A DNA stretch of 64,000 nucleotides from Candidatus Aminicenantales bacterium (lineage in GTDB: Bacteria > Acidobacteriota > Aminicenantia > Aminicenantales > Aminicenantaceae), in the NCBI GenBank assembly GCA_046760305.1, contig JBHIDX010000005.1, positions 12,150-76,149 of the forward strand. The letters are read 5' to 3'. The stretch's first letter is position 1. Every line of letters starts with the position of its first letter. Of the stretch, positions 8,688 through 24,966 are shown piece by piece. A program made the position numbers and the translations under genes. The notes under the pieces were generated by a model that saw nothing but the letters and a program-made list of their open reading frames with translations, was not told where the DNA came from and ran no database searches.

Positions 8688-9677
8688 TTATTTTTTCATT
8701 TCTTTATCGAAGGCAATCTCTGAAGGAGAAAAGTTTATGCTTCTTATGAATTCGAGCGATTCCTGGGCACCGAATTCACGCTCCATTCCGTTGTCTTCCC
8801 ACTCAACTGAGAGAGGGCCTTCGTATCCTATCTCATTCAGGGCCCGGATTATTTCCTCGAAGTTAACGTCACCATGTCCCAGGGAGCGGAAATTCCATCC
8901 CCGCCTTATGTCACCAAAGGGGAGATGGGAGCCGAGAATTCCAGCTTTTCCGTCCAGGTTGAGAGCCACATCCTTCATGTGGGTGTGGTAGATGCGCTCA
9001 GGGAATTCGAGGATGAAGAGATGAGGCTCCATTCCCTGCCAGAGAAGGTGGCTGGGGTCAAAGTTAAGTCCGAGTGTTGGTCTGTGGTCAAAGACCTCGA
9101 AGAGGCGCTTTGTTGTGTAGAGGTCAAAAGCAATTTCAGTCGGATGGACCTCGAGGCCGAATTTTACCCCGCAGCGCTCGAACTCATCAAGAATTGGCGT
9201 CCAGAGCTCGTGAATCTTCCTGAACCCTTCTTCGACCATTTCCTCGGTTGTGGGCGGGAAAGAATACCAGAACTTCCAGATCGGAGAGCCCATGAAACCG
9301 TTGACCACCGAACAGCCCATGTTTCTGGCAGCTCTGGCCGTATGCTTCATCTCCTCGATGGCCCATTCGCGGATCCGGTCGGGTTTACCCTTCACCTCCT
9401 CAGGCACAAACACATCCAGACGCTCGTCATACCTGTCGCCGACACACTGACCGGCAAGATGGGCGCCCAGGGCCCAGCATCTCAGATTGTTTTTTTCGAG
9501 CATCTTCTTTTTTCCCTTTACATAATCCCCGTCTTCAGATGCTTTGCGCACCTCCATGTGGTCTCCCCAGCAGGCGATTTCCAGGCCCTCATAGCCCCAG
9601 CTGCCGGCTTTCTTGCACATCTCAGTAAAAGGCAGATCCGCCCACTGGCCTGTAAATAAGGTCACAGGTCTTGCCAT
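8688..9677 (-). CDS. Sugar phosphate isomerase/epimerase (xylose-isomerase-like TIM barrel)
   Basis: AP-endonuclease-2 / xylose-isomerase-like fold signatures (GYEGLEI, HxKD, EWED). Start set at the internal ATG at 9677, which has aaggagg 7 nt upstream; the longer ORF would overlap the next gene by 46 bp. Confidence 0.8.
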   Translation of the reverse strand: MARPVTLFTGQWADLPFTEMCKKAGSWGYEGLEIACWGDHMEVRKASEDGDYVKGKKKMLEKNNLRCWALGAHLAGQCVGDRYDERLDVFVPEEVKGKPDRIREWAIEEMKHTARAARNMGCSVVNGFMGSPIWKFWYSFPPTTEEMVEEGFRKIHELWTPILDEFERCGVKFGLEVHPTEIAFDLYTTKRLFEVFDHRPTLGLNFDPSHLLWQGMEPHLFILEFPERIYHTHMKDVALNLDGKAGILGSHLPFGDIRRGWNFRSLGHGDVNFEEIIRALNEIGYEGPLSVEWEDNGMEREFGAQESLEFIRSINFSPSEIAFDKEMKK

Positions 9678-9700
9678 GGCTTCCTCCTTGGTATGAATGA

Positions 9701-10873
9701 TTAAAAATCTATCCAAACAGCGCCTTTTTTGGAACTCTCGACGCACTTTTCGATGAACTTCACACCGCGCACTCCCTCCTCGACGTGGGGATAATCCAGC
9801 TCTTCTTCGCTCAGCGATTCGCCTCTAAGCTTTTTGCTCAGAGCCTGACAGAAGGTGGAGTAAATGTTGGCGAAGGCTTCAAAATACCCCTCCGGGTGAC
9901 CGGCAGGGATGCGTGAGAAGCTCTGGGCCTGGGGGTAAAGAGTGTCGCGTCCGCGTGAAATTATTTCAGCAGGCCTTTCCAGGTAACAAATACGGGCATA
10001 ATTGGGATTTTCCTGGCACCATTCGAGCGAACCTCTGGTTCCGTAGATTCTGACTCTGAGTCCGTTGTCGTGGCCGACTGCGATCTGTGAACTCCAGTAA
10101 AGGCCTTTTGCTCCACCTTCATAGTTAACAAGAATTGAAGCGTTGTCATCCAGCACTCTACCCTCGACAAAAGTGTCAAGGCGGGCGCAGAGCGAGCTGA
10201 TCTTCAATCCGCTGAGATAAGAAACCATGTTCTCAATATGACTCCCGATGTCTCCGACACAGTTTGAGATACCCGAGCGGGAAGGGTCTGTTCTCCATTC
10301 AGCCTGCTTCTGACCTGTTTTCTCCAGCGCGGTGCTCAACCATTCCTGGGGATATTCAGCGTTAACGAACCTGATGTTTCCCAGCTCTCCCTTAGCAACC
10401 ATTTCTCTCAAATGCTTGACCAGTGGATAACCTGTGTAGGTGTAAGTGACGCAGAAAAGAAGTCCTTTTTCCCCCGAGAGACGCTCGAGCTCCTCTGCTT
10501 CCTTGCTGCTGGTAGTGAGTGGCTTATCGCATACAACGTGAAAATCATGCTCGAGAGCAAGTCTGGAGATAGAATAGTGTGAATCATTAGGGGTGACGAT
10601 GACCACGAAGTCAATCCCATCCTCCCGTCCTGCTTCTTTGCGGAACATTTCTTCAAAGGAAGAGTAAAGACGCTCCTCGTCCAGTCCAAGGCTTTTCCCG
10701 GTGGCGAGAGTGTTTTCATAATTCCTCGAAAAACAACCGGCAACCAGCTTTGCCTTGCCGTCCATGGCAATTGCCTTGCGGTGCACATCTCCGATGAAGG
10801 CACCCTGGCCGCCGCCGACCATGCCGTAGGTGAGCGTGGTCTTCCCCTTACCGCTTGCACTTGCCTCGATCAT
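9701..10873 (-). CDS. Gfo/Idh/MocA family oxidoreductase (cytoplasmic, no signal peptide)
   Basis: GMVGGGQGAFIG Rossmann motif and family-typical C-terminal domain. No Tat or Sec signal. Confidence 0.85.
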   Translation of the reverse strand: MIEASASGKGKTTLTYGMVGGGQGAFIGDVHRKAIAMDGKAKLVAGCFSRNYENTLATGKSLGLDEERLYSSFEEMFRKEAGREDGIDFVVIVTPNDSHYSISRLALEHDFHVVCDKPLTTSSKEAEELERLSGEKGLLFCVTYTYTGYPLVKHLREMVAKGELGNIRFVNAEYPQEWLSTALEKTGQKQAEWRTDPSRSGISNCVGDIGSHIENMVSYLSGLKISSLCARLDTFVEGRVLDDNASILVNYEGGAKGLYWSSQIAVGHDNGLRVRIYGTRGSLEWCQENPNYARICYLERPAEIISRGRDTLYPQAQSFSRIPAGHPEGYFEAFANIYSTFCQALSKKLRGESLSEEELDYPHVEEGVRGVKFIEKCVESSKKGAVWIDF

Positions 10874-10895
10874 GGACCACCTCCTTTTTATGTTC

Positions 10896-13721
10896 TCATT
10901 TTTTTAACTCTTTTTCTATCTTTTCCACAGCAGCTCTAGCCTCCTCCTCCACTCCTTCCTCTTCAACCAGGGAGCGGGCGAACTCAAGCGCCTCCTGGCA
11001 GGGAAAGATAGGTAGAATGCTGAGCACCAGCTTTTTTTCCTCCATCCGTGCCAATCCCATGGTGTTTTTAAGCTCCCTGACTGCATGTTGTGGCAAGCGG
11101 TAGGGCTCAAGGCCAATCATCCTGATGTAGGCTCTAAGGGCGAGGAACTTGAGGACTTTGTTTTTTAATTTCAGGCTCAACTCGAGCAGGTCTTCTTTTG
11201 GAGTGGTGGTAGGCCAGTCAGCCAGAGCACGTATGGCAGCCTCTCTTTCTTCAGGCGTCCCACTTGACACAGCCCTGCGGAGAGAGGGGAGAGAGCTCTC
11301 ATCTCCAATTCTGCCCAGAACTCTGAGCAGAGCGCAGCGGTCGCTTATGTCCGCTGTTGAATCAAGCGCTTCCACCACTGGCCGTGCGCGGCCAGGCCCT
11401 CCTTTTTGCTTTCCAGCCACAGCAGCAATTGTGTTGGCCATTTCTTCTCGTTCTTTTTCCTGAGTTGAAGCAAGCATTATATCTACCAGATGTGGAAGGT
11501 GGGCAGGAGTGGCAATGTTTTTAAGAGATTTTATGGCCTGAAGCCGGATTTCAGCCTCTGAGAAGCGAGCCCGGGAAAGAAGTAGGCTTATCCCCTCCTT
11601 AATCCGTCGTTCGCCGATGGAGCGGATAAGCTCCTGCCGAACACGTGGGTCAGGCAGTTTAATAAGGTTTAAGAGAATCGCTCTCTCAACTTCTTTCCCG
11701 GGCAGCCAGTCGAGGCTTTCCCGGGCCGCCTTCTTTTCTTCTCCAGAACTCAGCGCAGCGCCACGGGCAAGGAGTTCTACGGTGGAGTAGTCACCGAGAG
11801 TTTTAAGGGCTCTTAAGGCAGCTACCCTCACCTCCTTTTGCTTGCTCTGTGCCGCCTGGACAACGGATGAGAGCACTCCAGGTTTGCGGTAGCCGGAGAG
11901 AACTTCGAGCAGCATGACCTGGCTTGAAGGGGGGAGAGAGGGAAGCAGAGCGCTTACAGCCTCTATATTTTCGAGGTCAAAAAAATCCCTGATGAGGGTT
12001 ATAGCTGGTTGGTGCCATTCGATATTCTTTCCTTCCAGTGCTCTGATTATTATCTCCGAGGCGTTAGCGGCCGAAGATATTTTTCCTCTCATGGCAGCCT
12101 GACGAAGGTTGAGGGGAAGTTTCGAGGATATGAGTGCTTCATACATTCTTGAAGCTTCCTCGCTCTTCCCGGCTTCAAGGCGGTTCTCGGCACATTTAAG
12201 CACAGAAGAAGCAACGACTGCTTTTACTTCGCCTGAGGTTTTGTTCATATTTTTGAGGAGAAATTCTGCTGCCTGCGCAGTTCCCACCTGGCCCATCGCT
12301 CTGGCAGCAGCAGCGGCTGTCTCAGGCTGAGCGCCGCGGAGCAGCTTTGAAAGCTGAGGCAGCGAATTCTCAGACTTTCTGTTTCCCAGAGAAGAGATGA
12401 TACCCAGCCTCACTTTCCCTCTGCTTTTTGAAAGCGCCTTTATGAGTGCCTTGGCTGCATCCTGACCGGGAATTTTTTCTAGAGCATACCTTGCAATGTC
12501 AGACGTTTGGAGATGAAGCAGCATTTTCTCCAGCCAAGGAACAGAGAGCGAGGTGCCGATTTCTCTTAACTGCCGCGAGGCTGCCATTTTTGCTGCCAGG
12601 GTAGCATCTGACGCAAGAAAATGGGCAAGGCGTGTCTCACATTCTGCTCTGGATTGAGGTGAATTGCGGTGAGCTCTCACATAGTCCCTGAGCCGGGAGA
12701 GTATTTCTTCGTCCTGACCGTATTCGTAGCTGGCAAGCTCTTTTAGTATTTCCTCCAGCCTCTCAGGCCTGAAATTCTTCCATCGCCTGACATCATCAGG
12801 AGTGCCCGATTCGCGGTAGAGAGCTGGAAAATCTCCTGGTACTTTCTGGGTTACGCTGCCCGTGGCTGCCCATTCTGCACCGCGCTGGAAAGTGACGATA
12901 AAGCCCACGCATTCCATCGATGGGGGATGTTTTTCTCCCATGGCATGGCCAAGGACTGTATGGAAGATTCTCCCCTTACCATACCTGACCGTGAAAAGCA
13001 CTGGTTCATGCCTCCCTGTTCCCAGCTGAGCAGGGTCGCTGTAGGCTGTGGCCAGGACATGAACCTCTTCAGCCGGCCCGCGCAGGAGACTGTAGAGTTC
13101 GTCTCTGGCATGCATCCATCTCTCAGGCAGTCCCCTGGTGATAGGATGAGAGGAGTCACGGTTGACGACCACAAAAGCGTGCTGGTAGCCGTGGTAGCCG
13201 GCAATCCCGGGACTCTTATCCCTGACAATTCTCCCCTTTTCCCAGTAGAGATAGGGTCCGGTAGATTCATCGCGGTTTCCCCATCCCCCTAGCCCTATGA
13301 TTCTGTTGTATTCCTTCCACTGGGGGAAAGAATTGTCAGCCGCGTGGTAGACGACAACACCTCCACCCTGTCTGACATAGCGAACAAATGCCTCCTGGGT
13401 AGAAGAAGACCAGGCATCTCCGTTGTAATCGAGGACAACTACCTGGTAGGAGTCAAACTCGGGCCTGAAAAGGGACATGTCCTTTCCCCTGGGAGGGCTG
13501 GCCGCCACCTCCACCTCAAACATACCCGTCTCCTCTAATATCTTTTTAAGGATGGAGCTGCTTGTCTTCCAGTCGTGATTGTTCTGTCCCGTGACAATCA
13601 GTGCCTTAAGAGAAGAGGCTGAAAGTGGTGAAGAAAAGGATGCCCAAAAGAGAAGGGCCAGGATAATGGGGGTGAGAATGAATTTTGTTTTTTTTGCTTT
13701 TTTTATGCCCATTTTATTCAC
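10896..13721 (-). CDS. Secreted ThuA-like domain protein fused to a long HEAT/PBS-lyase repeat region
   Basis: Sec signal. N-terminal ThuA (trehalose-utilisation, GATase1-like) pattern ALIVTG..H.......VVVLDYNGD......GGGVVVYHAADNSF. C-terminal 600 aa of HEAT-like repeats (ARYALEKIPG, RVRQELIRSIG). No CxxCH. Confidence 0.75.
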   Translation of the reverse strand: MNKMGIKKAKKTKFILTPIILALLFWASFSSPLSASSLKALIVTGQNNHDWKTSSSILKKILEETGMFEVEVAASPPRGKDMSLFRPEFDSYQVVVLDYNGDAWSSSTQEAFVRYVRQGGGVVVYHAADNSFPQWKEYNRIIGLGGWGNRDESTGPYLYWEKGRIVRDKSPGIAGYHGYQHAFVVVNRDSSHPITRGLPERWMHARDELYSLLRGPAEEVHVLATAYSDPAQLGTGRHEPVLFTVRYGKGRIFHTVLGHAMGEKHPPSMECVGFIVTFQRGAEWAATGSVTQKVPGDFPALYRESGTPDDVRRWKNFRPERLEEILKELASYEYGQDEEILSRLRDYVRAHRNSPQSRAECETRLAHFLASDATLAAKMAASRQLREIGTSLSVPWLEKMLLHLQTSDIARYALEKIPGQDAAKALIKALSKSRGKVRLGIISSLGNRKSENSLPQLSKLLRGAQPETAAAAARAMGQVGTAQAAEFLLKNMNKTSGEVKAVVASSVLKCAENRLEAGKSEEASRMYEALISSKLPLNLRQAAMRGKISSAANASEIIIRALEGKNIEWHQPAITLIRDFFDLENIEAVSALLPSLPPSSQVMLLEVLSGYRKPGVLSSVVQAAQSKQKEVRVAALRALKTLGDYSTVELLARGAALSSGEEKKAARESLDWLPGKEVERAILLNLIKLPDPRVRQELIRSIGERRIKEGISLLLSRARFSEAEIRLQAIKSLKNIATPAHLPHLVDIMLASTQEKEREEMANTIAAVAGKQKGGPGRARPVVEALDSTADISDRCALLRVLGRIGDESSLPSLRRAVSSGTPEEREAAIRALADWPTTTPKEDLLELSLKLKNKVLKFLALRAYIRMIGLEPYRLPQHAVRELKNTMGLARMEEKKLVLSILPIFPCQEALEFARSLVEEEGVEEEARAAVEKIEKELKK

Positions 13722-13739
13722 CTTTTGACGCTCGTTTTC

Positions 13740-15044
13740 TCAGAGGCCGAGCTGCCAGGGACTCCTGTAGGAGCGTCCTAGCAGGCGCGCTGCCTCCGCA
13801 TCGCCGATAATTTCCTCCTTTTCCGGATTAAAACGAATCTTGCGCCCCAGTTCCATGGCTATCCCACCCAGATGACCGACACTTGCTGAGCGGTGGGCGA
13901 CTTCGATCGGAGTTATCGTCTGCCTCCTGCTTTTCACGCAGTCGAGAAAATTCTGGTAGTGGTCCCTGCTTCTGTAGAGACGAATCTCATTCGGTCCGAT
14001 TCGTTCATTGAGAATCTCCTGAGGATGAGCCTCAAGTCCTCCTCGGTTAACCCAGATCCACCCGTATTCTCCTATCCATTTTGTGCCAGGTCGAATCTCT
14101 TCGTGTCCGCCCGCAATATCCATCGGCGTGCCGTCTGCGTACCTGGCTTTAAGGTAGTAACGGGTGGGACTGTTCCACACGCCCCGCCTCGGGAATTCGC
14201 CCCAGCCCTCGATCTCAACAGGTCCGGTGAGGTCAAAACCCAGACCCCAGTGAGCAATGTCGACATGATGGCCGACCCAGTCCATGAGCTGGCCGCCGCC
14301 AAAATCCATGACCCAGCGCCAGTTCCTGTGCACCTTTGCCGGACAGTAAGGCGAATAGGGAGCAGGTCCCACCCAGAAATCATAATCGAGTTCTGAGGGA
14401 GGAGGCCCTATTTTCTCCTGCCCTTTTGTCCCGGCAAAGTCATAGTGACCTGATGGAAGTCCAACCTCGACTTTGAGAATCTTCCCCATGCGGCCGTTGC
14501 GGACGAGCTCGCAGGCGTGATGGAAGTTTTCCACTGAGCGCTGCCAGCTTCCTGTCTGCCAGATGCGGCTGTAGCGCTTTACTGCCTCACACATTGCTCG
14601 ACCCTCGAGGAGGCTGTGGGAGAGAGGCTTTTCGCCGTAAATATCAAATCCTGCGCGGGCACACTCGATAGCAGGAATGGCATGCCAGTGGTCTGGCAGA
14701 GCGATGGAGACAGCATCTATGTCAGTTCGCTGGCAGAGCTCCCTGAAATCCTTGTAGGTGGCACAGTCTCTGTTGCCGTACTTCTGGTTTACGATATCCC
14801 GGGCTTGGCGCAGGTGGTTTTCGTCCACGTCACACACTGCTACCCATTGAACCTCCTTTTTTTCCAGGAAGGCTTTCATGTTGGGAATGCCCATCATGCC
14901 AAAGCCGATGCCGGCCATGACGATGCGGTTGGAAGGAGGAACAGCCTTTCCCTTCCCCAGTACCGGAGAGGGAATGATGGCAGGAGCGGCAAAAGTTCCG
15001 GCCGCTGCCAGGGAAAGCTTTTTCAAAAAATCTCTTCTCTTCAT
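13740..15044 (-). CDS. Tat-exported Gfo/Idh/MocA family oxidoreductase
   Basis: Twin-arginine signal KRRDFLKKLSLAAAG. GIGFGMMG Rossmann motif. Gfo/Idh/MocA C-terminal domain. Confidence 0.85.
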   Translation of the reverse strand: MKRRDFLKKLSLAAAGTFAAPAIIPSPVLGKGKAVPPSNRIVMAGIGFGMMGIPNMKAFLEKKEVQWVAVCDVDENHLRQARDIVNQKYGNRDCATYKDFRELCQRTDIDAVSIALPDHWHAIPAIECARAGFDIYGEKPLSHSLLEGRAMCEAVKRYSRIWQTGSWQRSVENFHHACELVRNGRMGKILKVEVGLPSGHYDFAGTKGQEKIGPPPSELDYDFWVGPAPYSPYCPAKVHRNWRWVMDFGGGQLMDWVGHHVDIAHWGLGFDLTGPVEIEGWGEFPRRGVWNSPTRYYLKARYADGTPMDIAGGHEEIRPGTKWIGEYGWIWVNRGGLEAHPQEILNERIGPNEIRLYRSRDHYQNFLDCVKSRRQTITPIEVAHRSASVGHLGGIAMELGRKIRFNPEKEEIIGDAEAARLLGRSYRSPWQLGL

Positions 15045-15433: not shown

Positions 15434-17866
15434 TTAGTGCCATTCTCTGGAGAGAGCTTTGAGTTCAACAGCTTCCACTTTCCTGTATACTTTGTTGAAA
15501 GGAAGCCTTTTCCCCCTGACACTGAGCAGGCGGTCAACAGATATTGAGAAAAGTCTTTGGTTCTCTTTAAGGTAAGGGAGGATGAGCTCCCAGTCTTTTT
15601 CCCCTAGCTCAGTAAATTTTCCTCCGTTGAGCTGCCCCTCTTCGACCACGCGGTGTGGGTCTCTGAAGTAGATGGCCCCGCCTGAGGCGAGTGAGAAAAG
15701 GTTTCCTCCCGGGTAAGGGGTCTCCAGGTCAACGATTTCGCCTCTTTCATTGAAGGTGAGACCATTGAGGATGATGAATCCGCCTCCGTTGAAGGGGTCT
15801 CCTGCCATGAATGATTCTGCCAGATAATCAAGGCATGTACCGTTGATGACAACCCTTGGATGTCCGACTGCATTAATGAGCGGCCTTCCAGCAGCATTGC
15901 CGAGGACATAGGCCTCTCCTCCTTTTGCGCCGTACATGAAAGTCTGCCCAACATCGCCGTAAATTACCAGCTTGCCGCTCTTCATTATCTGAGCTACCTG
16001 ATCCTGAGCATTCTCGTGGACGTAGATTTCAGCCCCGTCCATCCCTGAGGCGAGATAGTCACCCGAACTGCCGTAGACATCAATCCGCACCCCATCTGAA
16101 CCGGGCCCGAGTCCGCACCCGCAGAACCTCTGTCCTCTCCAATTGAGAGTAATGAAATTTTTCCATCCCATCTCATAAGCAGTAACGATGAATCTCGATA
16201 TTGAGTCCTCGCCTTCGCTTGGAAATTCCTGACTGTCAATGACCAGAACCTCTCCCTCTTTTCGAGGTGGCCTAAGCGAACCTCTCCTCTTCCACTCCAG
16301 AAGATGATAGAGAGATTCATCTCTTCCCCCCGCCAAAGATGAGAAAAGCTCATTCAGTGAATTTTCACAGTCGTGCATGAGACGCGCCCTGTCTTTTACT
16401 GGCAGCCGCCACCTGCGGTCAATTACTTCTGTGAGGCTGCGAATCCTGTCCGAGATTTTCTCATCTGAACGGTATTCTCCTCCAGGTAGGACACTCACCG
16501 GGCAGTCGTGTTCGCGGCTGGTTGAGATCTTTTTCCCGAATTTATCTTTCACAATCAGGTCATTGTCTCTCACGGTGAAGACAAAAGCTCCTCCATCAGT
16601 GTAGCTACCACCCCGGGCATTCCAGTAAATGTCAGCGTAGGGCATGAACCTTTTGTCCTCTCGGTGAAGGCTGCGCAGGGTGGCATCAATGGCCTGCTTT
16701 TCGCTGGCCACAAGACCCACTCTGACGCCGTTTTCATAAAGGGCAAACACCTGAGGCCTGAGCATAGAGGTATCCGTTATTCCGATGAGCTGAAATCCCT
16801 GGCTGCCAGCAAGAGTTCTCCCGATGATAAAAAACCAAGGCCCGTCAGGAGAGCTGTGAATGTGAGAAGCCTGCAGGAGGCGGTAGATTCTTCTTTTCTC
16901 TTCAGGAAGAAGAGTAAAATCTCTCTCTGTAGTGGGGGCCATGGCTTCGATAGTATATTCAAGCGGGTATTCGTATACTCTGTTGTAGAGGTCGAAAAGG
17001 AGTACAGAGACCTCGGTGTCGGTCAGGAAAAGGGGATGGATATTTCTCTGGCCGAGATATTCGGTTATCGAATGATAGTTGGCAAAGTCGCCGTTATGCA
17101 CCAGCGCCTCATCCATGCCCGCAAAAGGATGCGCTCCTCCAGGATGCCATACTTTTCCTTTGGTGGGATAGCGCTGATGGCCTATCCAGATATGAGCCTT
17201 AAGCTCCTCGAGAAGATAATAGTGGATGGCCTGTTCCGCATAGCCCACGATCTTGAGGATGAACATGTTTCTCCCATGGGAGAGAACAAAAGCTCTCTTT
17301 TCCCCGAGCGAGGTGTAAAATTTTCTGTTCAGCCTGTAGGAGTTCTGGTAGATAAACTCATCTTCCACTTTCTCCTTCGGCAGCCCATTCAGTCCGTTTT
17401 CTTTCCTGAATTTGCGAAGATTTGCTTCCTTTACCCGGGAGAAATACCTCCACACCTCAGGCGGTTTCATCTCCAGCCCGGGAATGCCTTTCCAGTCCTT
17501 TACTGTGGGAAGCCTGTGATAGGCATGGACTTCGAGCGAGTCAAATATAAACTCTTTCTCAACCTCTTTTCTCGAGGCAGGATCGAGATAAGCAACCTGG
17601 ATAAGGTAGTCGTTCTCGAGTATTTCTCTGCTCACTCCGAGCTGAGAAGGTTCGAGCCCGAAGGCAGCCATGCCCCCGCCCTTGCTGTTTCCCCGGTTAT
17701 GCATCTGGATGCAGGCCTGCAGGATGTGCCTGCCGGCAATCTTCTCGCTGCAGGCGAGGCCGACCACCCCGCAGCCCCCTTCGGTTGCTTCTTTACGGAG
17801 CTCACCGCCTGAAGGGAGGAGGTTCCGGCGCGAATCGATGAGCTTTATACTCAGTTCATTTTCCAT
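15434..17866 (-). CDS. Glutamate-synthase-like protein: class-II glutamine amidotransferase domain fused to a GXGXG (GltB C-terminal) domain
   Basis: N-terminal CGVVG...NRGNSKGGGMAAFG (Ntn-type GATase; catalytic Cys follows a roughly 31-aa propeptide). C-terminal WRGQRFCGCGLGPG...YGDVGQTFMYGAKGGEAYVLGNAAGRP GXGXG repeats. Confidence 0.8.
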   Translation of the reverse strand: MENELSIKLIDSRRNLLPSGGELRKEATEGGCGVVGLACSEKIAGRHILQACIQMHNRGNSKGGGMAAFGLEPSQLGVSREILENDYLIQVAYLDPASRKEVEKEFIFDSLEVHAYHRLPTVKDWKGIPGLEMKPPEVWRYFSRVKEANLRKFRKENGLNGLPKEKVEDEFIYQNSYRLNRKFYTSLGEKRAFVLSHGRNMFILKIVGYAEQAIHYYLLEELKAHIWIGHQRYPTKGKVWHPGGAHPFAGMDEALVHNGDFANYHSITEYLGQRNIHPLFLTDTEVSVLLFDLYNRVYEYPLEYTIEAMAPTTERDFTLLPEEKRRIYRLLQASHIHSSPDGPWFFIIGRTLAGSQGFQLIGITDTSMLRPQVFALYENGVRVGLVASEKQAIDATLRSLHREDKRFMPYADIYWNARGGSYTDGGAFVFTVRDNDLIVKDKFGKKISTSREHDCPVSVLPGGEYRSDEKISDRIRSLTEVIDRRWRLPVKDRARLMHDCENSLNELFSSLAGGRDESLYHLLEWKRRGSLRPPRKEGEVLVIDSQEFPSEGEDSISRFIVTAYEMGWKNFITLNWRGQRFCGCGLGPGSDGVRIDVYGSSGDYLASGMDGAEIYVHENAQDQVAQIMKSGKLVIYGDVGQTFMYGAKGGEAYVLGNAAGRPLINAVGHPRVVINGTCLDYLAESFMAGDPFNGGGFIILNGLTFNERGEIVDLETPYPGGNLFSLASGGAIYFRDPHRVVEEGQLNGGKFTELGEKDWELILPYLKENQRLFSISVDRLLSVRGKRLPFNKVYRKVEAVELKALSREWH

Positions 17867-19322
17867 CTTTATACCTCAAGAGGTCAGTCCTTCCCCTCAA
17901 CTCGCCGATATTTTTTAAACCGAGTCGGTAAAGTATAAGCTTTAGCTGCTTCTGCCAGGAAGCATAGAGATTGATGATGCGCTGTGCACCCCACGAGGGC
18001 TCTATCTGTGTTTCGAGTTCAGAGTCAGTGGTGGCAATTCCCCGCGGACATCCCTTGCCGCTCTCACAGTTTCCGCAGCGAACGCAGCCCAGGGCTACAA
18101 GTTCCGCTGTTCCGATTATCACCCCGTCTGCTCCGAGCGCGATTGATTTGGCGATATCGTAGGCATTCCGGATTCCTCCGCTGGCCATGAGAACCACCTC
18201 GTCGCGCACTCCCTCTTCGATGAGGAATCTGTGTACCTTGGTAATGGCGTATTCGATGGGCATGGCGATATTCTTTTTGGCAATCTCAGGTGCAGCTCCA
18301 GTTCCTCCGTATCCTCCGTCAAGGTTGATGATGTTTGCTCCAGCGTAGTAGCTTCCCACAGCCACCATGTCAACGTCGACTGGAGTTGAAACTTTGACCG
18401 AGATTATGGCATCGGGATTGATTGTTTTTACCCAGTCAAGATGCTTTTTGTGGTCTTCAACTGAGTAGACACTGTGAAAGGGAAAAGGAGAAAAAAGGGA
18501 GGTCCAGGCAACTGCCTCTCTCATCCCGGCGACAACAGGCGTATTTTTATCTCCGAGTAAATGGCCTCCCAACCCCGGCTTTGCTCCCTGTGCGTACTTG
18601 AACTCGATAATCCTTGCTCTTTTTATTGTCTCCTCCCGCACTCCGAACATACCGGTGGCTATCTGGGTGATGATATGGTTCTGGTAGGGAACCAATTCTT
18701 CAGGATAGCCGCCTTCACCCGTTGAGGTAAAAGTTCCCCAGCTCTTGGCAGCTTCTGCCCGTGAAAGCATGGTGGGCAGGCTTATCGAGCCAAAGGACAT
18801 GCCAGCACCATACCAGGGGATGGGGATAACAATTTTCGCTCCTTCTTCTCTTCTGTTTAGAGAGAGTGAAGTGTCAACCGCAGAAAGGTCTTCTTCAGCT
18901 TCTCGAGCGTTCCATTTAAAATCGAAAACATCAAATCCCCCTCCTGAGTCGCCGAAACGATGTTCGAAACAGTCAGGGGGCAGTTCCCCTCTTTCTGCTT
19001 CAAGCCAGGTACTGAGAATGAGATCCTGCGTCCAGCGGTAGTCTCCGAGCGACTTCCACTGGGGATCAGCTTCGATGGAAATGGCATCCACAGGGCATTT
19101 TCTCCTGCAGAAGTAGGCACCAGACGCACAGTCAGCTCCCCTGCAGAAAGAAGAGCGGAGGGGAAGGACAAAGTTTGTACCTTCTGTTCTTTCGAAAACA
19201 CGATGGGGACAGATGTCAACACAGAGCCCGCAGTGAAAGCATTCAGGACTGAGGGAGACTTTATATTTCCCGATTTGGTAAAGAAAACGGGAAGGACAGT
19301 AGCTTGCTCTGGCTTCCTTCAT
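17856..19322 (-). CDS. Glutamate-synthase FMN-binding (GltB central) domain protein with N-terminal 2x[4Fe-4S] ferredoxin domain (archaeal-type)
   Basis: CGLCVDICP and CRRKCP cluster motifs. LDGGYGGTGAAP FMN/substrate signature. C-terminal CVRCGNCESGKGCP. Confidence 0.8.
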   Translation of the reverse strand: MKEARASYCPSRFLYQIGKYKVSLSPECFHCGLCVDICPHRVFERTEGTNFVLPLRSSFCRGADCASGAYFCRRKCPVDAISIEADPQWKSLGDYRWTQDLILSTWLEAERGELPPDCFEHRFGDSGGGFDVFDFKWNAREAEEDLSAVDTSLSLNRREEGAKIVIPIPWYGAGMSFGSISLPTMLSRAEAAKSWGTFTSTGEGGYPEELVPYQNHIITQIATGMFGVREETIKRARIIEFKYAQGAKPGLGGHLLGDKNTPVVAGMREAVAWTSLFSPFPFHSVYSVEDHKKHLDWVKTINPDAIISVKVSTPVDVDMVAVGSYYAGANIINLDGGYGGTGAAPEIAKKNIAMPIEYAITKVHRFLIEEGVRDEVVLMASGGIRNAYDIAKSIALGADGVIIGTAELVALGCVRCGNCESGKGCPRGIATTDSELETQIEPSWGAQRIINLYASWQKQLKLILYRLGLKNIGELRGRTDLLRYKDGK

Positions 19323-20719
19323 CTTCTTTTTTCTCCGTTGTTGAATATAAATTCGAATGATTTTCTTTCTATCTCTTCGTAGAACATTGCCCTGCCAACT
19401 TCACCCCTAAGGCGCCTCACATCCTTTATCCCCATGGCGCTCAGAATCTCTAGAAGCTGGTCTCTCCAGGAGGAAATCATATTCACCATGCGCTGTGCGG
19501 CAAGGTTCTGGTCAAGAGTTTTTATACCAGCCGGGCAGGTATCGAAATCGCACTCACGACAGACCCTACATCCCAGAGCCACAAGAAGAGCGATATCCAG
19601 CACCACAGCATCCGCTCCGCAGATGATGAGCTTCGGCACATGCTCAGCTGCGGCGATGCCGCCTCCACCGATGAGAGTTATTTCGTCCCTTATCCTCTCT
19701 TTGACGAAGGCAAGGTGGAGAGAGCGTATGGACTCGGAGATGAAGTGACCGGTTTCAGCGTTTCGGCCGTGGCTGTCAGCGGTGCAAGTGAGTACATCTG
19801 CCTTTCCTGCTTTAAAGTGCTCTAAGAATTCGCCTGGAAGAGCTGGTGTTGAGGTTGTAAGAGAAATAACCGCGCCCGGATTTCCGACTCTAAGCGTCCG
19901 AAGTACCTCTTCAAGCCAGGAAGTTTCTGTTTTTTTAGCTACGATTATCTCCACAAAGCCTACTTTCCTCCAGGGAACTTTCTCAAGCTCTGATGTTTTC
20001 TCAAGCCTTAACCTGAGAGCGAGAAACGGAAGATAGGGAATAAGTTCATCCCGCCAATCCTCGATGTCGAGCAGGGCAAGCGTTCCTGTTATCTGGGCTG
20101 TCTTGATGACAGGCATGAGGATGCTCTCAGAGCGCAGGCCCAAGGGTCTTGTCTCGAGGAGCATCGGAATCTTTATTTCGGCCACAGGGAGTGAAGAGGG
20201 ATGTTCGAAATTGCTGATAAAGGGAAGTTTTCTTCCAATGTCCACAGCAGTGGCAATGTATTCTCTGCCGTGGATTCCATCCCTTGTCGGCCTCACAATT
20301 TCTGACATATCAGTCCATATGTCATCAAACCCCAATCCCCTGAACCGACCCCGGTAGCCAGCACCGTAGACAGGAATCATTCCCTCTTCTGCCTCATTCC
20401 AGATGGTCCAGATTTTATGGGGAGTCCAGTAGGAATCGCCCAGGTTTTCGTACTCCTCATTTTTGACCATTTTCAGAGCCTGCCGGGGGCAGTTCTGGAT
20501 GCAGGAGAAGCAGTTTTTACAGAGGTGGTTGAGAGGTTCCGCCATCAGGCGCGGGTCTCTGGAGTCGCGCCTGTGAACTCCGTAGATGCACCACTCGGCA
20601 CACTGACCGCAGTTAGCACACTCGTCGCTGCGGATGATAGTGAATTTGCCAATCCGCATCGATTCGAGCTCGGCTGTAGCTGTCTTAATCTGATATCTTT
20701 TATACATTTTTCTTTCCAT
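19319..20719 (-). CDS. Paralogous glutamate-synthase-domain-2-like Fe-S protein (degenerate FMN site)
   Basis: Same architecture as the upstream gene (CANCGQCAEWC, CKNCFSCIQNCP, IGGGGIAAAEHVP...CRVCRECDFDTCP), but the GGTGAAP signature is absent. 4-bp overlaps on both sides. Confidence 0.6.
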   Translation of the reverse strand: MERKMYKRYQIKTATAELESMRIGKFTIIRSDECANCGQCAEWCIYGVHRRDSRDPRLMAEPLNHLCKNCFSCIQNCPRQALKMVKNEEYENLGDSYWTPHKIWTIWNEAEEGMIPVYGAGYRGRFRGLGFDDIWTDMSEIVRPTRDGIHGREYIATAVDIGRKLPFISNFEHPSSLPVAEIKIPMLLETRPLGLRSESILMPVIKTAQITGTLALLDIEDWRDELIPYLPFLALRLRLEKTSELEKVPWRKVGFVEIIVAKKTETSWLEEVLRTLRVGNPGAVISLTTSTPALPGEFLEHFKAGKADVLTCTADSHGRNAETGHFISESIRSLHLAFVKERIRDEITLIGGGGIAAAEHVPKLIICGADAVVLDIALLVALGCRVCRECDFDTCPAGIKTLDQNLAAQRMVNMISSWRDQLLEILSAMGIKDVRRLRGEVGRAMFYEEIERKSFEFIFNNGEKRR

Positions 20720-22505
20720 TTGTGTTTTTAGGGATTGATAAAGAGAAGGCTGTGAAGAGCTCTTTACACCGAGGATTACTTTCGACTTCTTTCACAAAAG
20801 CTTCTATCTCTTCTTCTTTCGGCTTTCCGTATTTTTTCTCCACCCTTGATTCAAGTCTTTCCCAGAGGGACATTAAGCTGAGCTTACTCTGACAGACGAG
20901 CTCGCAGAGATGGCAGTGAAGGCAGAAGAAAATTTTCCTCGCTGTCTCCGGGGGAAGAAATGAGCCTTTTTTAAAATGCTTTATCAGGAAGAGTTTTCCT
21001 TTGGCAGTGATAATTTCATTCCTCTTCATGAGGTAGGCCGGGCAGGCGGCGGTGCAGGCACCGCAGCTTGAACAGGCCTCAGGTTCAGAGAGTGGACGGT
21101 GATTGTTCTTGCCGTTGGAAGAGGCAAAAATTCCGATTTTCCTGAAAAAAGAGCTTTTCTCGGGGAAAAGGCCGCTCATCCTGTAGGTGAACTTAAGCAG
21201 CCTCCCCGTGGGGTGAGTTGGAGAGAAAGATTTCGAGGTGTTCATCAGATTGTGTGGGTCAACGGATTTCTTGAATCGGGAATATTCTGCGAGCGCTGGG
21301 GGAGAGTATTTTTTCTCGAGCAGAGGCAGGTTCCACAACCCGATGTTGTAAGGCACCCCTCCTGACTTAACTGCGATTCGGGCCAGAGAGTAAGTCAGGA
21401 AGAGGTGGAGAAGATGCGTAAGCCCTCTGCTCGCTGAAGGGAAAAGAGTAAAAACAACAGCTTCTTTTCTGTTTATAAGACTTGCTTCAGAGGAAAGGCT
21501 AAGACCGTAGCTGGCAGCAAACTCTCTGGCACGCGCAATGTAGGAACTGAGTTTTTCAACAGGGAGTATTGTTTCGCAGCCGAGAAGCGAAGGATAGCGT
21601 TTTTTCACAGAGAAGGGGAAGTAGCGTTCGTTCCAGAGGAAAGAAGTGAGGTAGTCTTCAGCAGGAAACCCTCCTCTTTTTTCGGTCAGATTCAGGAGCT
21701 CTTTCTCGAGTGATTCAGATTTGTCGAAGACGACAAAAACACCTTCCATTTCAGGGAAAGAAAGGCCTCCTTTGAGGAGATAACCTTTTTCTTTGAGCCT
21801 GTACCTGTCCAGGAAAAGGGCAGTTAGAGGCGCAATTTTGAGGCGGACTAGCTCGCCGATGAAGTTCTCCGCCTCCCGGACAGAGTTAAAAAAGAGAAGA
21901 TATGGTTTTAAGGGTTTTTTTTCTCTAAGAGCGAGTTTAATCCTGGTGATTATGCCCATCTGGCCTTCAGAGCCCATGAAGTATTTAAAACCAGGATCAT
22001 GACGGAGGAGAAGTTTTTTTCCGGAAGGAGTCACGACTTCAATCGAGATAACCGAATTTGCCACATGACCGTACTTAAGGCTGTTAAGTCCGTAGCCGCC
22101 AGTTGCCAGCCATCCACCCACAGTAGAAAAGAGGCTTGTAGGGCAGGTATAAAGGTCGAGGCCGAAGTCGGCAAGTGTCTTTTTTAATTCCCACCAGCGC
22201 GTGCCTGCCTCGAGAAGCACTGTTCTTTTTTTGCTCTCGATATCGAGGATTCTGTTCAGAGATGTTGTGTCCACCATCAGAGATTTGCGGAGAGGAATGA
22301 GAGATCCTGTGCCTGATGTTGCCGCTCCTCTGGGGATTACCGAGAGATTGTTTTTTTTTGAGTAAGAAAAAATCTTCTCCACATCATCTTCATTTTCAGG
22401 CTGAATTACTTCTTTTACTCCGGGTAGAAAGCCGGTGATGAACTCCGGCACTTCAATTGTTTCCTTCATATAAAGTTTGACTTCAAGGGGTGAATCAATT
22501 ATCAT
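20700..22505 (-). CDS. FAD-linked oxidase (FAD_binding_4 / GlcD-like) fused to a C-terminal 2x[4Fe-4S] ferredoxin domain
   Basis: VIPRGAATSGTGS FAD-binding pattern. C-terminal CSSCGACTAACP and CLHCHLCELVCQ motifs. About 600 aa. Confidence 0.75.
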   Translation of the reverse strand: MIIDSPLEVKLYMKETIEVPEFITGFLPGVKEVIQPENEDDVEKIFSYSKKNNLSVIPRGAATSGTGSLIPLRKSLMVDTTSLNRILDIESKKRTVLLEAGTRWWELKKTLADFGLDLYTCPTSLFSTVGGWLATGGYGLNSLKYGHVANSVISIEVVTPSGKKLLLRHDPGFKYFMGSEGQMGIITRIKLALREKKPLKPYLLFFNSVREAENFIGELVRLKIAPLTALFLDRYRLKEKGYLLKGGLSFPEMEGVFVVFDKSESLEKELLNLTEKRGGFPAEDYLTSFLWNERYFPFSVKKRYPSLLGCETILPVEKLSSYIARAREFAASYGLSLSSEASLINRKEAVVFTLFPSASRGLTHLLHLFLTYSLARIAVKSGGVPYNIGLWNLPLLEKKYSPPALAEYSRFKKSVDPHNLMNTSKSFSPTHPTGRLLKFTYRMSGLFPEKSSFFRKIGIFASSNGKNNHRPLSEPEACSSCGACTAACPAYLMKRNEIITAKGKLFLIKHFKKGSFLPPETARKIFFCLHCHLCELVCQSKLSLMSLWERLESRVEKKYGKPKEEEIEAFVKEVESNPRCKELFTAFSLSIPKNTNGKKNV

Positions 22506-22645
22506 TTTTTTATCTCTTAAGGGAGTATATTTTCATAGGTAAATATTTTAGAGAAAAATATTTCCATTTGTCAAGATTTATATTATAATTAATTACAAAA
22601 ACATTTATTAAAGACTATTTTTATTACAGCTAGCAGGAGGCGAAA

Positions 22646-23089
22646 ATGGCTGAAGACATAGAACGGAAGATTATCAGAGCACTTAACCAGAATGCGCGCA
22701 AGAGTTTCAGGGAGATTGCCAAAGAGATTGGCTCCTCCACCCCGGCCGTGATAAACAACATAAAAAAACTGGAAAAGTCTGGAGCTATAAAGGGATACAT
22801 TCCTGTAGTTGACCCTGGATATTTCGGCTATGAACTGACTGCGGTCATTGCACTCAGGATTTCTCACGGGAAGCTGATCGAGACTCAGGAGAAAATTGCC
22901 GAAGACCCTCATGTGACTACCATCTATGATGTCACTGGAGATTGGGATTCACTGGTGATTGCTTATTTTAAAGGCAGAGAGGAACTCAACACCTTCATAA
23001 AGAATTTACTCTCTCAGAAATACGTGGACAGAACAATAACCCACATTGTGCTTAACACAGTTAAAGATGAACGGCGGATAAAGGTGTAG
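22646..23089 (+). CDS. Lrp/AsnC family transcriptional regulator
   Basis: N-terminal HTH (RKSFREIAKEIGSSTPAVINNIKKLEKSGAI) plus a RAM-like C-terminal domain. Divergent to the GOGAT-like operon. Confidence 0.85.
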   Translation: MAEDIERKIIRALNQNARKSFREIAKEIGSSTPAVINNIKKLEKSGAIKGYIPVVDPGYFGYELTAVIALRISHGKLIETQEKIAEDPHVTTIYDVTGDWDSLVIAYFKGREELNTFIKNLLSQKYVDRTITHIVLNTVKDERRIKV

Positions 23090-23151: not shown

Positions 23152-24966
23152 ATGTGCGGAATTTTTGGCATTGTTTTCAGAGACTACAGGAAAGACCTGG
23201 GACAGATTCTTCTTAAAGCGGGCAGGAAGCTTACCTACAGGGGCTATGATTCAGTGGGTATGGCAGCTTTCAACTCTGATGCCATTGAGCTGAGAAAGAA
23301 TGTTGGGGAGATTGAAGAGGTGAATGAGAAGCTCCGCTTTGATAGGCTCCAAGGAGTGAAGGGAATTGTCCAGCTCCGCTGGGCAACTTTCGGACCTCCT
23401 TCCCCGAAAAACTCACAGCCTCACCTTGACTGCAGCGGCAAAATGGCGGGAGCCCATAACGGTAATATCATTAACACCAAAGAACTGATTTACGAGCTCA
23501 GCCGCAAGGAGCATAATTTCCAGGGAGAAAATGACGGAGAAGTGGTTCTCCATGTGGTCGAACACTGTTTCAGGAAGACTCAGGACATGAACGCCGCCAT
23601 CCAGGAGGCGGATTCCATCCTCAAAGGAGATTATGCTTATGTCGTATCCAGAGCAGAGGAGGAGAGGATGTTCTGCGTAAAGAAGTACTCCTCCCTCTTT
23701 CTCGGCGTGGGAGACGGCTTTATCTGCTCTTCCTCAGACCTGCCTTCAATCATCCAGTTTACGAAGATGATTGTTCCTCTCTACGATGGAGAGTACGTTG
23801 AGTATACCTGGAAAGATTACAGGATAAGAAAGCTCTCCAGTGGAGAGGAGGTAGAGAGAGAGCCGTATGAGTGCAGTCTCGATATCGAGGAAGCGCGCAA
23901 AGGGGAGTTTCCCCACTTCATGCTCAAGGAAATCTATGAGCAGCCTGAGAAATCAAAAGCGTTGATTGAATTCCTGAAGGAATCTGGGCAGGCAGAGGAA
24001 TTCTGCCGCTCACTGAAGGATGAAAAAAGGATATATCTTGTCGGCTCAGGCTCTTCCTACAATGCCTGTGTCATAGGTTCCTACTACCTGAATAAAATAG
24101 CGGGCCGGGAAGCCGTGCCCGTCATAGCCGGCGCTTTTAAGGAGTTTATGGGCCGGGGTGAACTATCTCAGGGAGCCTACATTCTTGTTTCCCAGAGCGG
24201 TGAGACAAAGGATGTGATTAGCGCGCTCAATTATCTCGAGGAAAGAAAGGCAAGAAAAATATTTGCCGTGGTAAACGTGCTTGGTTCTTCACTTCAGCTC
24301 AGGGTGGAAAATTTCCTACCCCTTCTCTCAAACATTGAAATCAGCGTCCCAGCCACTAAAACTTTTACCAACCAGGTGATTATTTTTCTTTTTCTGGCGC
24401 TCAGTCTCGCCAGAAAGAGAGGTGGAGAATACAGGGCTCTGGAGGATGAATTCAACACCCTGCCTGATTTGATTGGAAAAACCCTCTCCACCACTTCTGA
24501 TAAATGCCGGGCAGTTTCGAGGGAGCTTTCTGCGAGGGATTATCTCTATTATCTCGGCTACGGAATATGTTATGGCGCCTGCCTTGAAGCGGCACTGAAA
24601 ATGAAAGAGATTACCTACATACCCTGTGAAGGCATGTATTCATCCGAGTTCAAACACGGGCCTCTGGCGATCATAAACAAGGGGGATTGGGTGCTTTTTC
24701 TTTCCACCCTCGAGGACTCTTCCATAACTCTCTCTCACATAAACGAAGTGAGCTGCCGCTGGGGAAAAATCTGCACCATTTCCCCGCCCGACGAATCGCT
24801 TTCTCTCAACTCTGACGAGCTAATCGCCCTTCCCAGTCGAAACTACTTTCTAACTCCCCTGCTCGAAGTTATTGTTGCCCAGCAGATTGCTTACTATGTG
24901 AGTCAGGAGAAAGGGATTAATCCTGATCAGCCCCGAAACATCAGCAAGACCCTGACCGTAGATTAG
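23152..24966 (+). CDS. glmS: Glutamine--fructose-6-phosphate aminotransferase (isomerising)
   Basis: MCGIFG N-terminal nucleophile. Two SIS domains. 604 aa. TTGACA-16-TACAAT promoter about 35 nt upstream. Confidence 0.8.
   Translation: MCGIFGIVFRDYRKDLGQILLKAGRKLTYRGYDSVGMAAFNSDAIELRKNVGEIEEVNEKLRFDRLQGVKGIVQLRWATFGPPSPKNSQPHLDCSGKMAGAHNGNIINTKELIYELSRKEHNFQGENDGEVVLHVVEHCFRKTQDMNAAIQEADSILKGDYAYVVSRAEEERMFCVKKYSSLFLGVGDGFICSSSDLPSIIQFTKMIVPLYDGEYVEYTWKDYRIRKLSSGEEVEREPYECSLDIEEARKGEFPHFMLKEIYEQPEKSKALIEFLKESGQAEEFCRSLKDEKRIYLVGSGSSYNACVIGSYYLNKIAGREAVPVIAGAFKEFMGRGELSQGAYILVSQSGETKDVISALNYLEERKARKIFAVVNVLGSSLQLRVENFLPLLSNIEISVPATKTFTNQVIIFLFLALSLARKRGGEYRALEDEFNTLPDLIGKTLSTTSDKCRAVSRELSARDYLYYLGYGICYGACLEAALKMKEITYIPCEGMYSSEFKHGPLAIINKGDWVLFLSTLEDSSITLSHINEVSCRWGKICTISPPDESLSLNSDELIALPSRNYFLTPLLEVIVAQQIAYYVSQEKGINPDQPRNISKTLTVD

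Follow-up and report, generated by a model that had tools for sequence, protein, structure and literature searches.

Nitrogen enters biomass mainly through glutamate synthase (GOGAT), whose electron supply is considered settled, with electrons coming from NAD(P)H through GltD or from ferredoxin. Open reading frames (ORFs) for single GltS domains exist in Archaea, and the central domain of GltS, which lines the ammonia tunnel, has been described as a truncated barrel that may be a copy of the FMN barrel (2021 review, PMC8097209). The split GOGAT operon of Geobacter, GSU1235-1239, has non-GltD redox partners and RpoN control, is documented to respond to nitrogen, and is accepted as a GOGAT (PMC2725144).

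Here, we analyzed a 64,000-nucleotide stretch of a Candidatus Aminicenantales bacterium (assembly GCA_046760305.1, contig JBHIDX010000005.1, positions 12,150 to 76,149), referred to as the window. It carries four overlapping genes, named A to D in transcription order (Table 1). A is a FAD protein with an iron-sulfur (Fe-S) domain, and B, C, and D together carry domains of the GltS type. The first-pass annotation of this DNA had proposed a glutamate synthase-type amidotransferase that draws its electrons from a 2-hydroxy acid. The domain content and the glnA neighbors described below support the first part of this proposal, and the electron source is not borne out. We conclude that A-B-C-D is probably a four-subunit, GltD-independent GOGAT, as judged from sequence. 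The survey of relatives points to a third, modular solution to electron supply in GOGAT, with the core found in at least 592 species genomes and in many anaerobic phyla. The points of interest are the breadth and conservation of this core, its re-tooled flavoprotein partner, and the occurrence of the same core embedded in MvhD/MetF/Hdr clusters.

C and D match domains of glutamate synthase, and B is a possible central-domain equivalent

The four ORFs are all present, and Pfam and NCBIfam agree with the domain classes first assigned to them. A and B overlap by 20 nt (8 nt with the NCBI start of B, which lies four codons later and gives a 462-aa protein), B and C by 4 nt, and C and D by 11 nt.

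C matches Fer4 and the full PF01645 model (296 bits; cut-off 20.4) and contains GGYGGTGAAP. It aligns with the synthase domain of A. brasilense GltS alpha over 311 residues (GltS residues 856-1169; E = 2e-52), and both the Lys of QGAKPG and an Arg further downstream are retained. Among 67 C-family members, QGAKPG and GGTGAAP are at least 90% conserved, and the four Cys of the barrel motif CxxCxxCx5CP are present in 100%. In canonical GltS, a [3Fe-4S] cluster is bound by three Cys, and E. coli GltB has Cx5Cx4C at the site of CxxCxxCx5CP. The barrel cluster of C is likely a [4Fe-4S] cluster.

D combines a glutaminase domain (GATase_6; 28.6 bits, cut-off 27) with GXGXG (PF01493; 45 bits, cut-off 32.5). 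The fusion of a glutamine amidotransferase to GXGXG is thus as first described, but the glutaminase is PurF/GlmS-like rather than of the GltS GATase_2 type, and no alignment was obtained between this half of D and GATase_2 of E. coli GltB. The PurF/GlmS-type motifs HQRYPTKG, HNGDFANY, and TDTEV are invariant or nearly so in 12 D sequences. The extension of about 31 residues noted before the catalytic Cys is real, with Cys32 in EGGCGVVGLA invariant among 12 bacterial and archaeal homologs. In a 1374-aa C-D fusion (L107), EEGGCGVVG lies internally with the Cys motif at residue ~537, which fits a propeptide and implies that the residues before Cys32 would be removed autocatalytically, whatever their length.

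D is also found apart from the other genes. The complete Aminicenantes genome CP070825 (1.47 Mb) has a second, stand-alone D copy of 809 aa that is 71% identical to the window D. No A, B, or C adjoins this copy, which is surrounded by BcrAD/BadFG-type ATPase genes and a PadR/MacB cluster. An ANME-1 Methanophagaceae locus (L052) has D without a recognizable B or C upstream, and tRNA-intron endonuclease, multihaem cytochrome, and MptE-like genes are found there instead. FrhB10 has been described next to GltS subunits in ANME genomes (Chadwick et al. 2022, PMC9012536).

B was first described as a second Fe-S and FMN-like paralog. It is a full-length paralog of C (28% identity), but its Pfam matches are Fer4 and just the C-terminal third of PF01645 (64 bits). 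B lacks QGAKPG and GGTGAAP, and a deletion of ~38 residues in the barrel removes the substrate loop. It keeps the eight ferredoxin Cys, the four-Cys barrel cluster motif, and the motif GGIAAAEHVPKxIICGAD. The AF2 model of B (pLDDT 82) is an FMN-type TIM barrel, and a Foldseek search with it returned generic FMN TIM barrels alone (TM ~0.5). B and C are fused in several phyla, and B-C fusions such as that at L108 retain the ferredoxin domain. In the B parts of two B-C fusions (L012 and L059), Glu_syn_central scores above gathering (34.8 and 42.8 bits). Because of the truncated barrel, these fusion matches, and the published description of the GltS central domain (PMC8097209), B is likely best interpreted as the counterpart of that domain in a separate protein. 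If so, the three proteins D, B, and C would jointly rebuild a complete GltS alpha subunit.

One loop of B (residues 113-155) is near-invariant, yet AF2 models residues 117-127 and 136-151 with a pLDDT under 50, which predicts disorder in the isolated subunit. The loop is therefore a candidate interface or ammonia-tunnel element.

The gene neighborhoods of relatives point in the same direction. A type I glnA that scores above the TIGR00653 cut-off lies directly upstream of A or of MvhD-B in relatives, and type III glutamine synthetase (GS), carA/carB, and guaA are frequent neighbors. A GS gene is present at 15 of the 58 loci that could be classified by their upstream region. A GOGAT function is likely because true glnA, carA, and guaA genes often adjoin B-C-D.

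A is a flavoprotein without the active-site motifs of its nearest enzyme family

A matches FAD_binding_4 (101 bits), FAD-oxidase_C (32 bits, a weak match), and Fer4_8 (residues 476-541), and its dicluster domain has eight invariant Cys (478, 481, 484, 488, 528, 531, 534, and 538). These matches agree with the earlier description of a FAD protein with a C-terminal 2x[4Fe-4S] domain. Pfam found no CCG domains (PF02754) after the dicluster domain, with Fer4_8-type matches only, and YdiJ runs ~400 residues past the end of A in the alignment. The AF2 model of A (pLDDT 86, pTM 0.88) has the fold of D-lactate dehydrogenase (D-LDH) and AGPS. Foldseek gave TMt values of 0.80 for mouse D-LDH (LDHD), 0.81 for isopod D-LDH (9qit), and 0.64 for AGPS, and LctD (7qh2_C) was also among the structural-database matches. 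A sequence search of the PDB with just the cap domain gave nothing beyond a chance match and offered no clue to the substrate.

Twelve A-family members were aligned with E. coli GlcD and YdiJ. The FAD-binding motifs are all invariant in the family. HxGDGNxH and GEHG are both absent from the window A and from all 12 aligned members, fused forms included. G-E-H-G-x-G is swapped for P-Y-x-x-G-x-W-N throughout the family, with a deletion of 3-4 residues. The second His of HxGDGNxH is gone in every member, and the window A lacks the first His as well. Both motifs are kept in GlcD, YdiJ, and two FAD proteins outside the family (L127 and L130). We take HxGDGNxH and GEHGxG to supply the metal-binding His/His/Glu and the catalytic His in the structures of D-LDH and D-2-hydroxyglutarate dehydrogenase (D2HGDH). 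The identification of A as a canonical GlcD or D2HGDH was ruled out by these active-site motifs, and their loss throughout the family argues against the D-2-hydroxyglutarate, lactate, or glycolate donor suggested in the first-pass annotation.

A keeps the Arg of W-x-x-R together with Tyr386, Trp391, Asn392, and an invariant Glu311, and the conserved pocket reads W-x-E-R-x-F-P / E311 / P-Y-x-x-G-x-W-N. A substrate pocket may therefore persist, whereas canonical 2-hydroxy-acid dehydrogenation is not supported. The donor of A may be a small anionic organic molecule that is oxidized by noncanonical chemistry, a suggestion to which we give somewhat less than an even chance. Two other possibilities appear rather unlikely, and to a similar degree: NAD(P)H or another cofactor could be the donor, or A could operate without any external hydride donor.

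A is linked to B-C-D across genomes

The A family is narrow, with 188 matches at E ≤ 1e-5 compared to more than 7700 for B and for D. Every A homolog with readable downstream sequence (28-60% identity) precedes B, usually followed by C and D. This arrangement covers the Aminicenantes loci, four distant homologs (31-44% identity) from Thermoplasmatota, Fischerbacteria, and others, and metagenomic homologs (28-59%). Two FAD proteins that are 21% identical to A have no B downstream.

Gene fusions join the same partners. In a metagenomic locus (L118), A, B, C, and D form one uninterrupted ORF of 2557 aa with no stops, directly behind glnA, and its domains are FAD_binding_4, FAD-oxidase_C, Fer4_8, Fer4, Glu_synthase, GATase_6, and GXGXG. 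A second locus (L114) has an A-B-C fusion that is ended by the contig edge. The synteny of the A homologs and these two fusions provide strong evidence at the genomic level that A and B-C-D act as a single complex. The FAD-oxidase gene is thus conserved with the GltB-like genes across genomes.

The core is preceded by interchangeable modules

D is 70-76% identical within Aminicenantes and 54-63% identical to homologs from Desulfobacterota, Chloroflexota, Verrucomicrobiota, Planctomycetota, Bathyarchaeia, Heimdallarchaeota, ANME-1-related archaea, and other archaea. The best matches to the window proteins come from Aminicenantes. A scan with one genome per species found the core in at least 592 genomes, and Desulfonema limicola and Desulfobacca acetoxidans are among the species labels in that scan. 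The carriers include Aminicenantes, Desulfobacterota, Dehalococcoidia, Verrucomicrobiota, and Planctomycetota among the bacteria and Bathyarchaeia, Heimdallarchaeota, ANME-1-related archaea, and Thermoplasmatota among the archaea. B-C-D is kept as a unit across 82 surveyed loci.

The module 5' of B was classified at the 58 loci where the sequence before B spans 2 kb or more. At 34 of these it is MvhD, with or without MetV and MetF, and at 15 it is A; five have none of these modules, and at the remaining four, B and C are fused and no partner is present. A is one of several interchangeable modules at this position, of which MvhD/MetV/MetF is commoner. Loci with B-C-D alone are found in Bathyarchaeia and Heimdallarchaeota. 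In a rough neighbor-joining tree of D (BLOSUM distances, midpoint-rooted), A-type loci fall at three or more separate places and are not monophyletic.

HdrC-HdrB-HdrL follows D in 14 loci. This HdrL has ~1500 aa and contains a GltD-like segment (Fer4_20 and Pyr_redox_2); HdrL is known as an Hdr/GltD fusion of D. autotrophicum (PMC2702500). An extended cluster with the order MvhD-MetF-B-C-D-HdrC-HdrB-HdrL(~1500 aa)-MvhD-MetV occurs in Verrucomicrobiota, Planctomycetota, Chloroflexota, and others. It looks like an Hdr-linked methylene-tetrahydrofolate (methylene-THF) reductase cluster that holds a glutamate synthase-like core. Our searches found no published explanation of B-C-D inside this supercluster. 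The MetF copies upstream of B were compared at L048, L049, L058, L065, L067, and L070. Desulfobacterota and Dehalococcoidia copies keep E28, D120, and Q183 (E. coli numbering), and Verrucomicrobiota and Planctomycetota copies appear to have Tyr at Asp120 and His or Ser at Gln183 in an alignment of ~20% identity. The Verrucomicrobiota and Planctomycetota copies may tentatively be regarded as not true methylene-THF reductases.

No GltD was seen at the Aminicenantes loci. tblastn gave no GltD/NfnB-like match at these loci or in the 64-kb window, in keeping with the earlier statement that an NAD(P)H-binding small subunit is lacking. The same search of the window found no further gene for GltD-like protein, NfnA, MetF, MetV, MvhD, HdrB, HdrC, HdrL, or GlnA. 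The absence of an adjacent gltD does not extend to all relatives, since GltD-like modules are found elsewhere as part of HdrL, as a NfnAB-like pair in Thermoplasmatota, and at L077, where a canonical gltB-gltD lies ~2.5 kb downstream of A-B-C-D. The Thermoplasmatota A-B-C-D loci have NfnA (PyrK-like) and NfnB/GltD-like genes ~230 nt after D. These two genes may encode a separate Nfn transhydrogenase or an additional module for electron input.

Proposed mechanism and alternatives

From the gene content, motifs, synteny, and fusions, we infer the substrates, electron path, propeptide cleavage, and regulation of a GOGAT that would operate as follows. D would be processed between Gly31 and Cys32 and would then hydrolyze glutamine. 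Ammonia would travel through a tunnel built with C and with B, the proposed counterpart of the central domain, and reach the FMN of C, where 2-oxoglutarate would be converted to 2-iminoglutarate and reduced to glutamate. The GXGXG beta-helix of D would have a structural role as in GltS. A would be the dedicated substitute for GltD and the electron-entry subunit, and its FAD would split a two-electron donor into single electrons. These would reach the FMN one at a time through ~8 Fe-S clusters, of which A would hold two and B and C three each. The conserved Cys in cluster motifs (8 in A, 12 in B, and 12 in C) are enough for this number, which makes the internal Fe-S wire suggested earlier plausible.

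Several points weigh against the GOGAT assignment. B-C-D occurs without A in most lineages, so A is unneeded for the core chemistry. A lacks the presumed catalytic motifs of its nearest enzyme family and might oxidize no substrate. The glutaminase of D matches the GATase_6 and PurF/GlmS models and not GATase_2. Against the reading of B as a central-domain equivalent, only 13 of 40 free B homologs match PF04898 (Glu_syn_central), and weakly, the window B has no PF04898 match in Pfam, and an hhalign comparison of the B profile to E. coli GltB matched the FMN domain alone and not the central domain. PDB searches found no entry close to the A cap, B, or D. The substrate loop of C is fixed as GLGGHLL in the 67 family members, compared to the canonical GEGGQLP (E to L, Q to H, and P to L), which may leave room for another 2-oxo acid substrate.

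These substrate-loop substitutions and the non-GltS type of the glutaminase would also suit a glutamine- or amine-dependent FMN enzyme that is not a GOGAT and acts on another 2-oxo acid or imine, in the way that N-methylglutamate synthase (MgsABC) re-uses GltS domains. In many phyla, the core is flanked by metF/metV and by hdr genes, a hint of a link to C1 or energy metabolism, and the canonical gltB-gltD beside A-B-C-D in L077 indicates that the two are not simply redundant. However, the GS neighbors are bona fide type I enzymes and not gmaS-like, C retains both the Lys and the Arg of the QGAKPG...R region, and no mgd or sarcosine-oxidase-like genes were seen at the surveyed loci. MgsABC is redox-neutral, lacks Fe-S domains, and is encoded with gmaS and mgdABCD, unlike this locus with its ~8 clusters and FAD. 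An MgsABC-like system was ruled out by the Fe-S content and the true glnA neighbors, and we judge any non-GOGAT enzyme of this kind to be quite improbable. A marginally better, though still low, chance is given to a glutamate synthase in which A would oxidize a D-2-hydroxy acid (D-lactate, glycolate, or D-2-hydroxyglutarate) through GlcD/D-LDH/D2HGDH chemistry and so drive the reaction. A has the D-LDH/GlcD fold, with LctD among its matches, and retains the Arg of W-x-x-R, which presumably binds the substrate carboxylate in the D2HGDH and LDHD structures. Its fusion of FAD and 2x[4Fe-4S] domains recalls YdiJ and GlcDF, and the potential of the lactate/pyruvate couple (approximately -190 mV) would be adequate for the reduction of 2-iminoglutarate. 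These features are offset by the replaced GEHGxG and broken HxGDGNxH in all A-family members when GlcD, YdiJ, L127, and L130 keep both, by the cap without detectable sequence similarity to PDB chains, by the lack of CCG domains, and by the presence of MvhD/MetV/MetF or nothing at the position of A in other lineages.

The role of A could also be reversed. Ferredoxin could supply the electrons by way of the ferredoxin domains in B and C, and A would be an electron exit or regulatory subunit whose FAD passes surplus electrons on to an acceptor or joins in flavin-based bifurcation or confurcation. The loci with B-C-D alone show that the core can be supplied without A, and MvhD, HdrC, HdrB, and HdrL, which are typical bifurcation components, flank the core in other phyla. 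The free energy released by the GOGAT reaction suffices for a coupled endergonic reduction. Yet no HdrA, Etf, or NfnB-type bifurcating flavoprotein is found in the A-type operon or in the window, and we know of no PCMH-type flavoprotein that bifurcates. The N-terminal position of A in the A-B-C-D fusion, beside the ferredoxin domain of B, fits a simple linear chain. An exit or regulatory role for A is the least probable of these alternatives.

The GOGAT reading can be extended. B-C-D would then form the catalytic core in a large class of glutamate synthases of anaerobes and would plug into interchangeable redox modules. At this locus, a re-tooled D-LDH-fold flavoprotein would couple metabolite oxidation to nitrogen assimilation. 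In Wood-Ljungdahl organisms, the core would be wired to MvhD/MetFV/HdrCB-HdrL, linking glutamate synthesis to flavin-based electron bifurcation or partnering an Hdr-linked methylene-THF reductase. We regard this extension in its entirety as speculative and unlikely.

Regulator, promoter, and neighboring genes

An Lrp/AsnC-family regulator gene is divergent from A across an AT-rich intergenic region of 140 nt. It is 73% identical to the same-position regulator in CP070825, and the divergent arrangement recurs at other Aminicenantes, Fischerbacteria, and Bathyarchaeia loci. A sigma-70-like promoter candidate matches 11 of 12 consensus positions, a consensus match alone. The regulator gene and the promoter-like site belong to the A-B-C-D locus and extend it beyond its first description. 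The regulator probably controls the operon according to amino-acid or nitrogen status.

GlmS, encoded after the regulator, is another glutamine-consuming enzyme that adjoins the operon, as carA and guaA do in relatives. A sugar-type gene cluster (8688-15044, minus) lies downstream of the operon, and no terminator-like site was found in the 389-nt gap between D and this cluster. Two opposite-strand ORFs are probably spurious.

Table 1. Locations of the features described in the text. Positions without a prefix refer to the window; those prefixed with L refer to surveyed loci.
Feature	Position	Strand	Description
Gene A	20700-22505	minus	601 aa; FAD_binding_4 + 2x[4Fe-4S]; first in transcription order
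A FAD_binding_4 (PCMH) domain	22017-22409	minus	aa 33-163; RGxGxxxxG and PSSxxSTVGGW invariant
A C-terminal dicluster domain	20871-21098	minus	aa 470-545; Fer4_8, HdrC/GlcF-like
Gene B	19319-20719	minus	466 aa; ferredoxin domain + truncated FMN-type barrel; second in transcription order
B near-invariant loop	20255-20383	minus	aa 113-155; GxxPVxGAGYRGxFxGxGFDxxWTDMSEIVRPTRDGIHGREYI
Gene C	17856-19322	minus	488 aa; ferredoxin domain + GltS synthase domain; third in transcription order
C barrel Fe-S motif	18048-18086	minus	C413-x2-C416-x2-C419-x5-C425-P
Gene D	15434-17866	minus	810 aa; Ntn-glutaminase fused to GXGXG; last in transcription order
D Cys32 codon	17771-17773	minus	presumed N-terminal nucleophile after 31-aa propeptide
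D GXGXG domain	15644-16099	minus	aa 590-741; hhalign to E. coli GltB residues 1231-1359
Sigma-70-like promoter candidate	22545-22574	minus	TTGACA-18-TAAAAT, ~40 nt upstream of A start codon
Lrp/AsnC-family regulator	22646-23089	plus	147 aa; divergent from A; Pfam AsnC_trans_reg, HTH_24, HTH_AsnC-type
GlmS (glutamine-fructose-6-phosphate transaminase)	23152-24966	plus	after Lrp/AsnC gene; above NCBIfam cut-off
Gfo/Idh/MocA oxidoreductase	13740-15044	minus	twin-arginine-like N-terminus
ThuA + HEAT-repeat protein	10896-13721	minus	941 aa; signal peptide
Second Gfo/Idh/MocA	9701-10873	minus	
Xylose-isomerase-like TIM barrel protein	8688-9746	minus	
Opposite-strand ORF	22589-22912	minus	107 aa; no Pfam match; overlaps Lrp/AsnC gene
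Opposite-strand ORF	16664-17812	plus	382 aa; antisense within D
A-B-C-D fusion	L118:6770-14443		
A-B-C fusion	L114:2138-7297		
C-D fusion	L107:7369-11493		
B-C fusion	L108:8845-11778		
Stand-alone D copy of CP070825	L087:10001-12430		
D of ANME-1 Methanophagaceae	L052:9989-12583		
MvhD/MetF/Hdr supercluster	L048:5704-18622		likewise L049, L058, L065, L067, L070, L074, L076, L081, L030, L050, L062
NfnA + NfnB/GltD-like pair	L083:15747-17995; L084:15524-17776		also L105, L111

Significance

If the GOGAT assignment is true, it would change the annotation of nitrogen assimilation in subsurface and sediment metagenomes. B would be a free-standing, Fe-S-bearing homolog of the GltS central domain, which bears on the origin of that domain by duplication of the FMN barrel. 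A would represent a new function for a D-LDH-fold flavoprotein that lacks the presumed catalytic motifs, and the relatives would suggest a connection, open to testing, of GOGAT with the Hdr/MvhD/MetF machinery for electron transfer.

Comparison with known systems

Literature searches found no description of A-B-C-D or of MetFV-B-C-D. The GltBD enzymes of A. brasilense and E. coli and the ferredoxin-dependent GltS (Fd-GltS) of cyanobacteria and plants share with this locus an Ntn glutaminase with a presumed N-terminal Cys after a propeptide, an FMN barrel with Fe-S, and GXGXG, as well as a truncated central barrel if B is the equivalent of that domain. At this locus, the domains are distributed over three proteins, the glutaminase is of the PurF/GlmS type and is fused to GXGXG, and B and C each have an extra 2x[4Fe-4S] ferredoxin domain and a 4-Cys instead of a 3-Cys barrel motif. 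A PCMH-type FAD/Fe-S protein takes the place of the GltD of GltBD.

The archaeal-type split GltS and the Thermotoga/Geobacter-type split GOGAT are similar in their separate ORFs, an FMN subunit with a ferredoxin domain, and a non-GltD redox partner. They differ from this locus, where the glutaminase and GXGXG are one protein (a comparison with the archaeal domain order as we understand it), where a second, truncated barrel subunit B is present, and where the partner is a FAD_binding_4 protein rather than a pyridine-nucleotide-disulfide oxidoreductase and an Fe-S protein. MgsABC differs in that the present locus has ~8 Fe-S motifs and a FAD subunit, with type I GlnA neighbors and no mgd-like genes at the surveyed loci.

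In the MetFV-HdrABC-MvhD and HdrL clusters, MvhD, with or without MetV and MetF, is the counterpart that occupies the place of A in the majority class of relatives, whereas none of those genes is found in the window or in the Aminicenantes operons. A shares with GlcDEF, YdiJ, D-LDH, and LctD the FAD_binding_4 and FAD-oxidase_C fold, and its Fer4_8 dicluster fusion is like that of YdiJ and GlcF. Unlike GlcD, YdiJ, and D-LDH, A lacks HxGDGNxH and GEHG; it also has no CCG domains of the kind that follow the dicluster domain in GlcF and YdiJ, and it is never found outside the B-C-D context. In its missing motifs, A resembles GlcE, a noncatalytic paralog that likewise lacks HxGDGNxH and GEHG.

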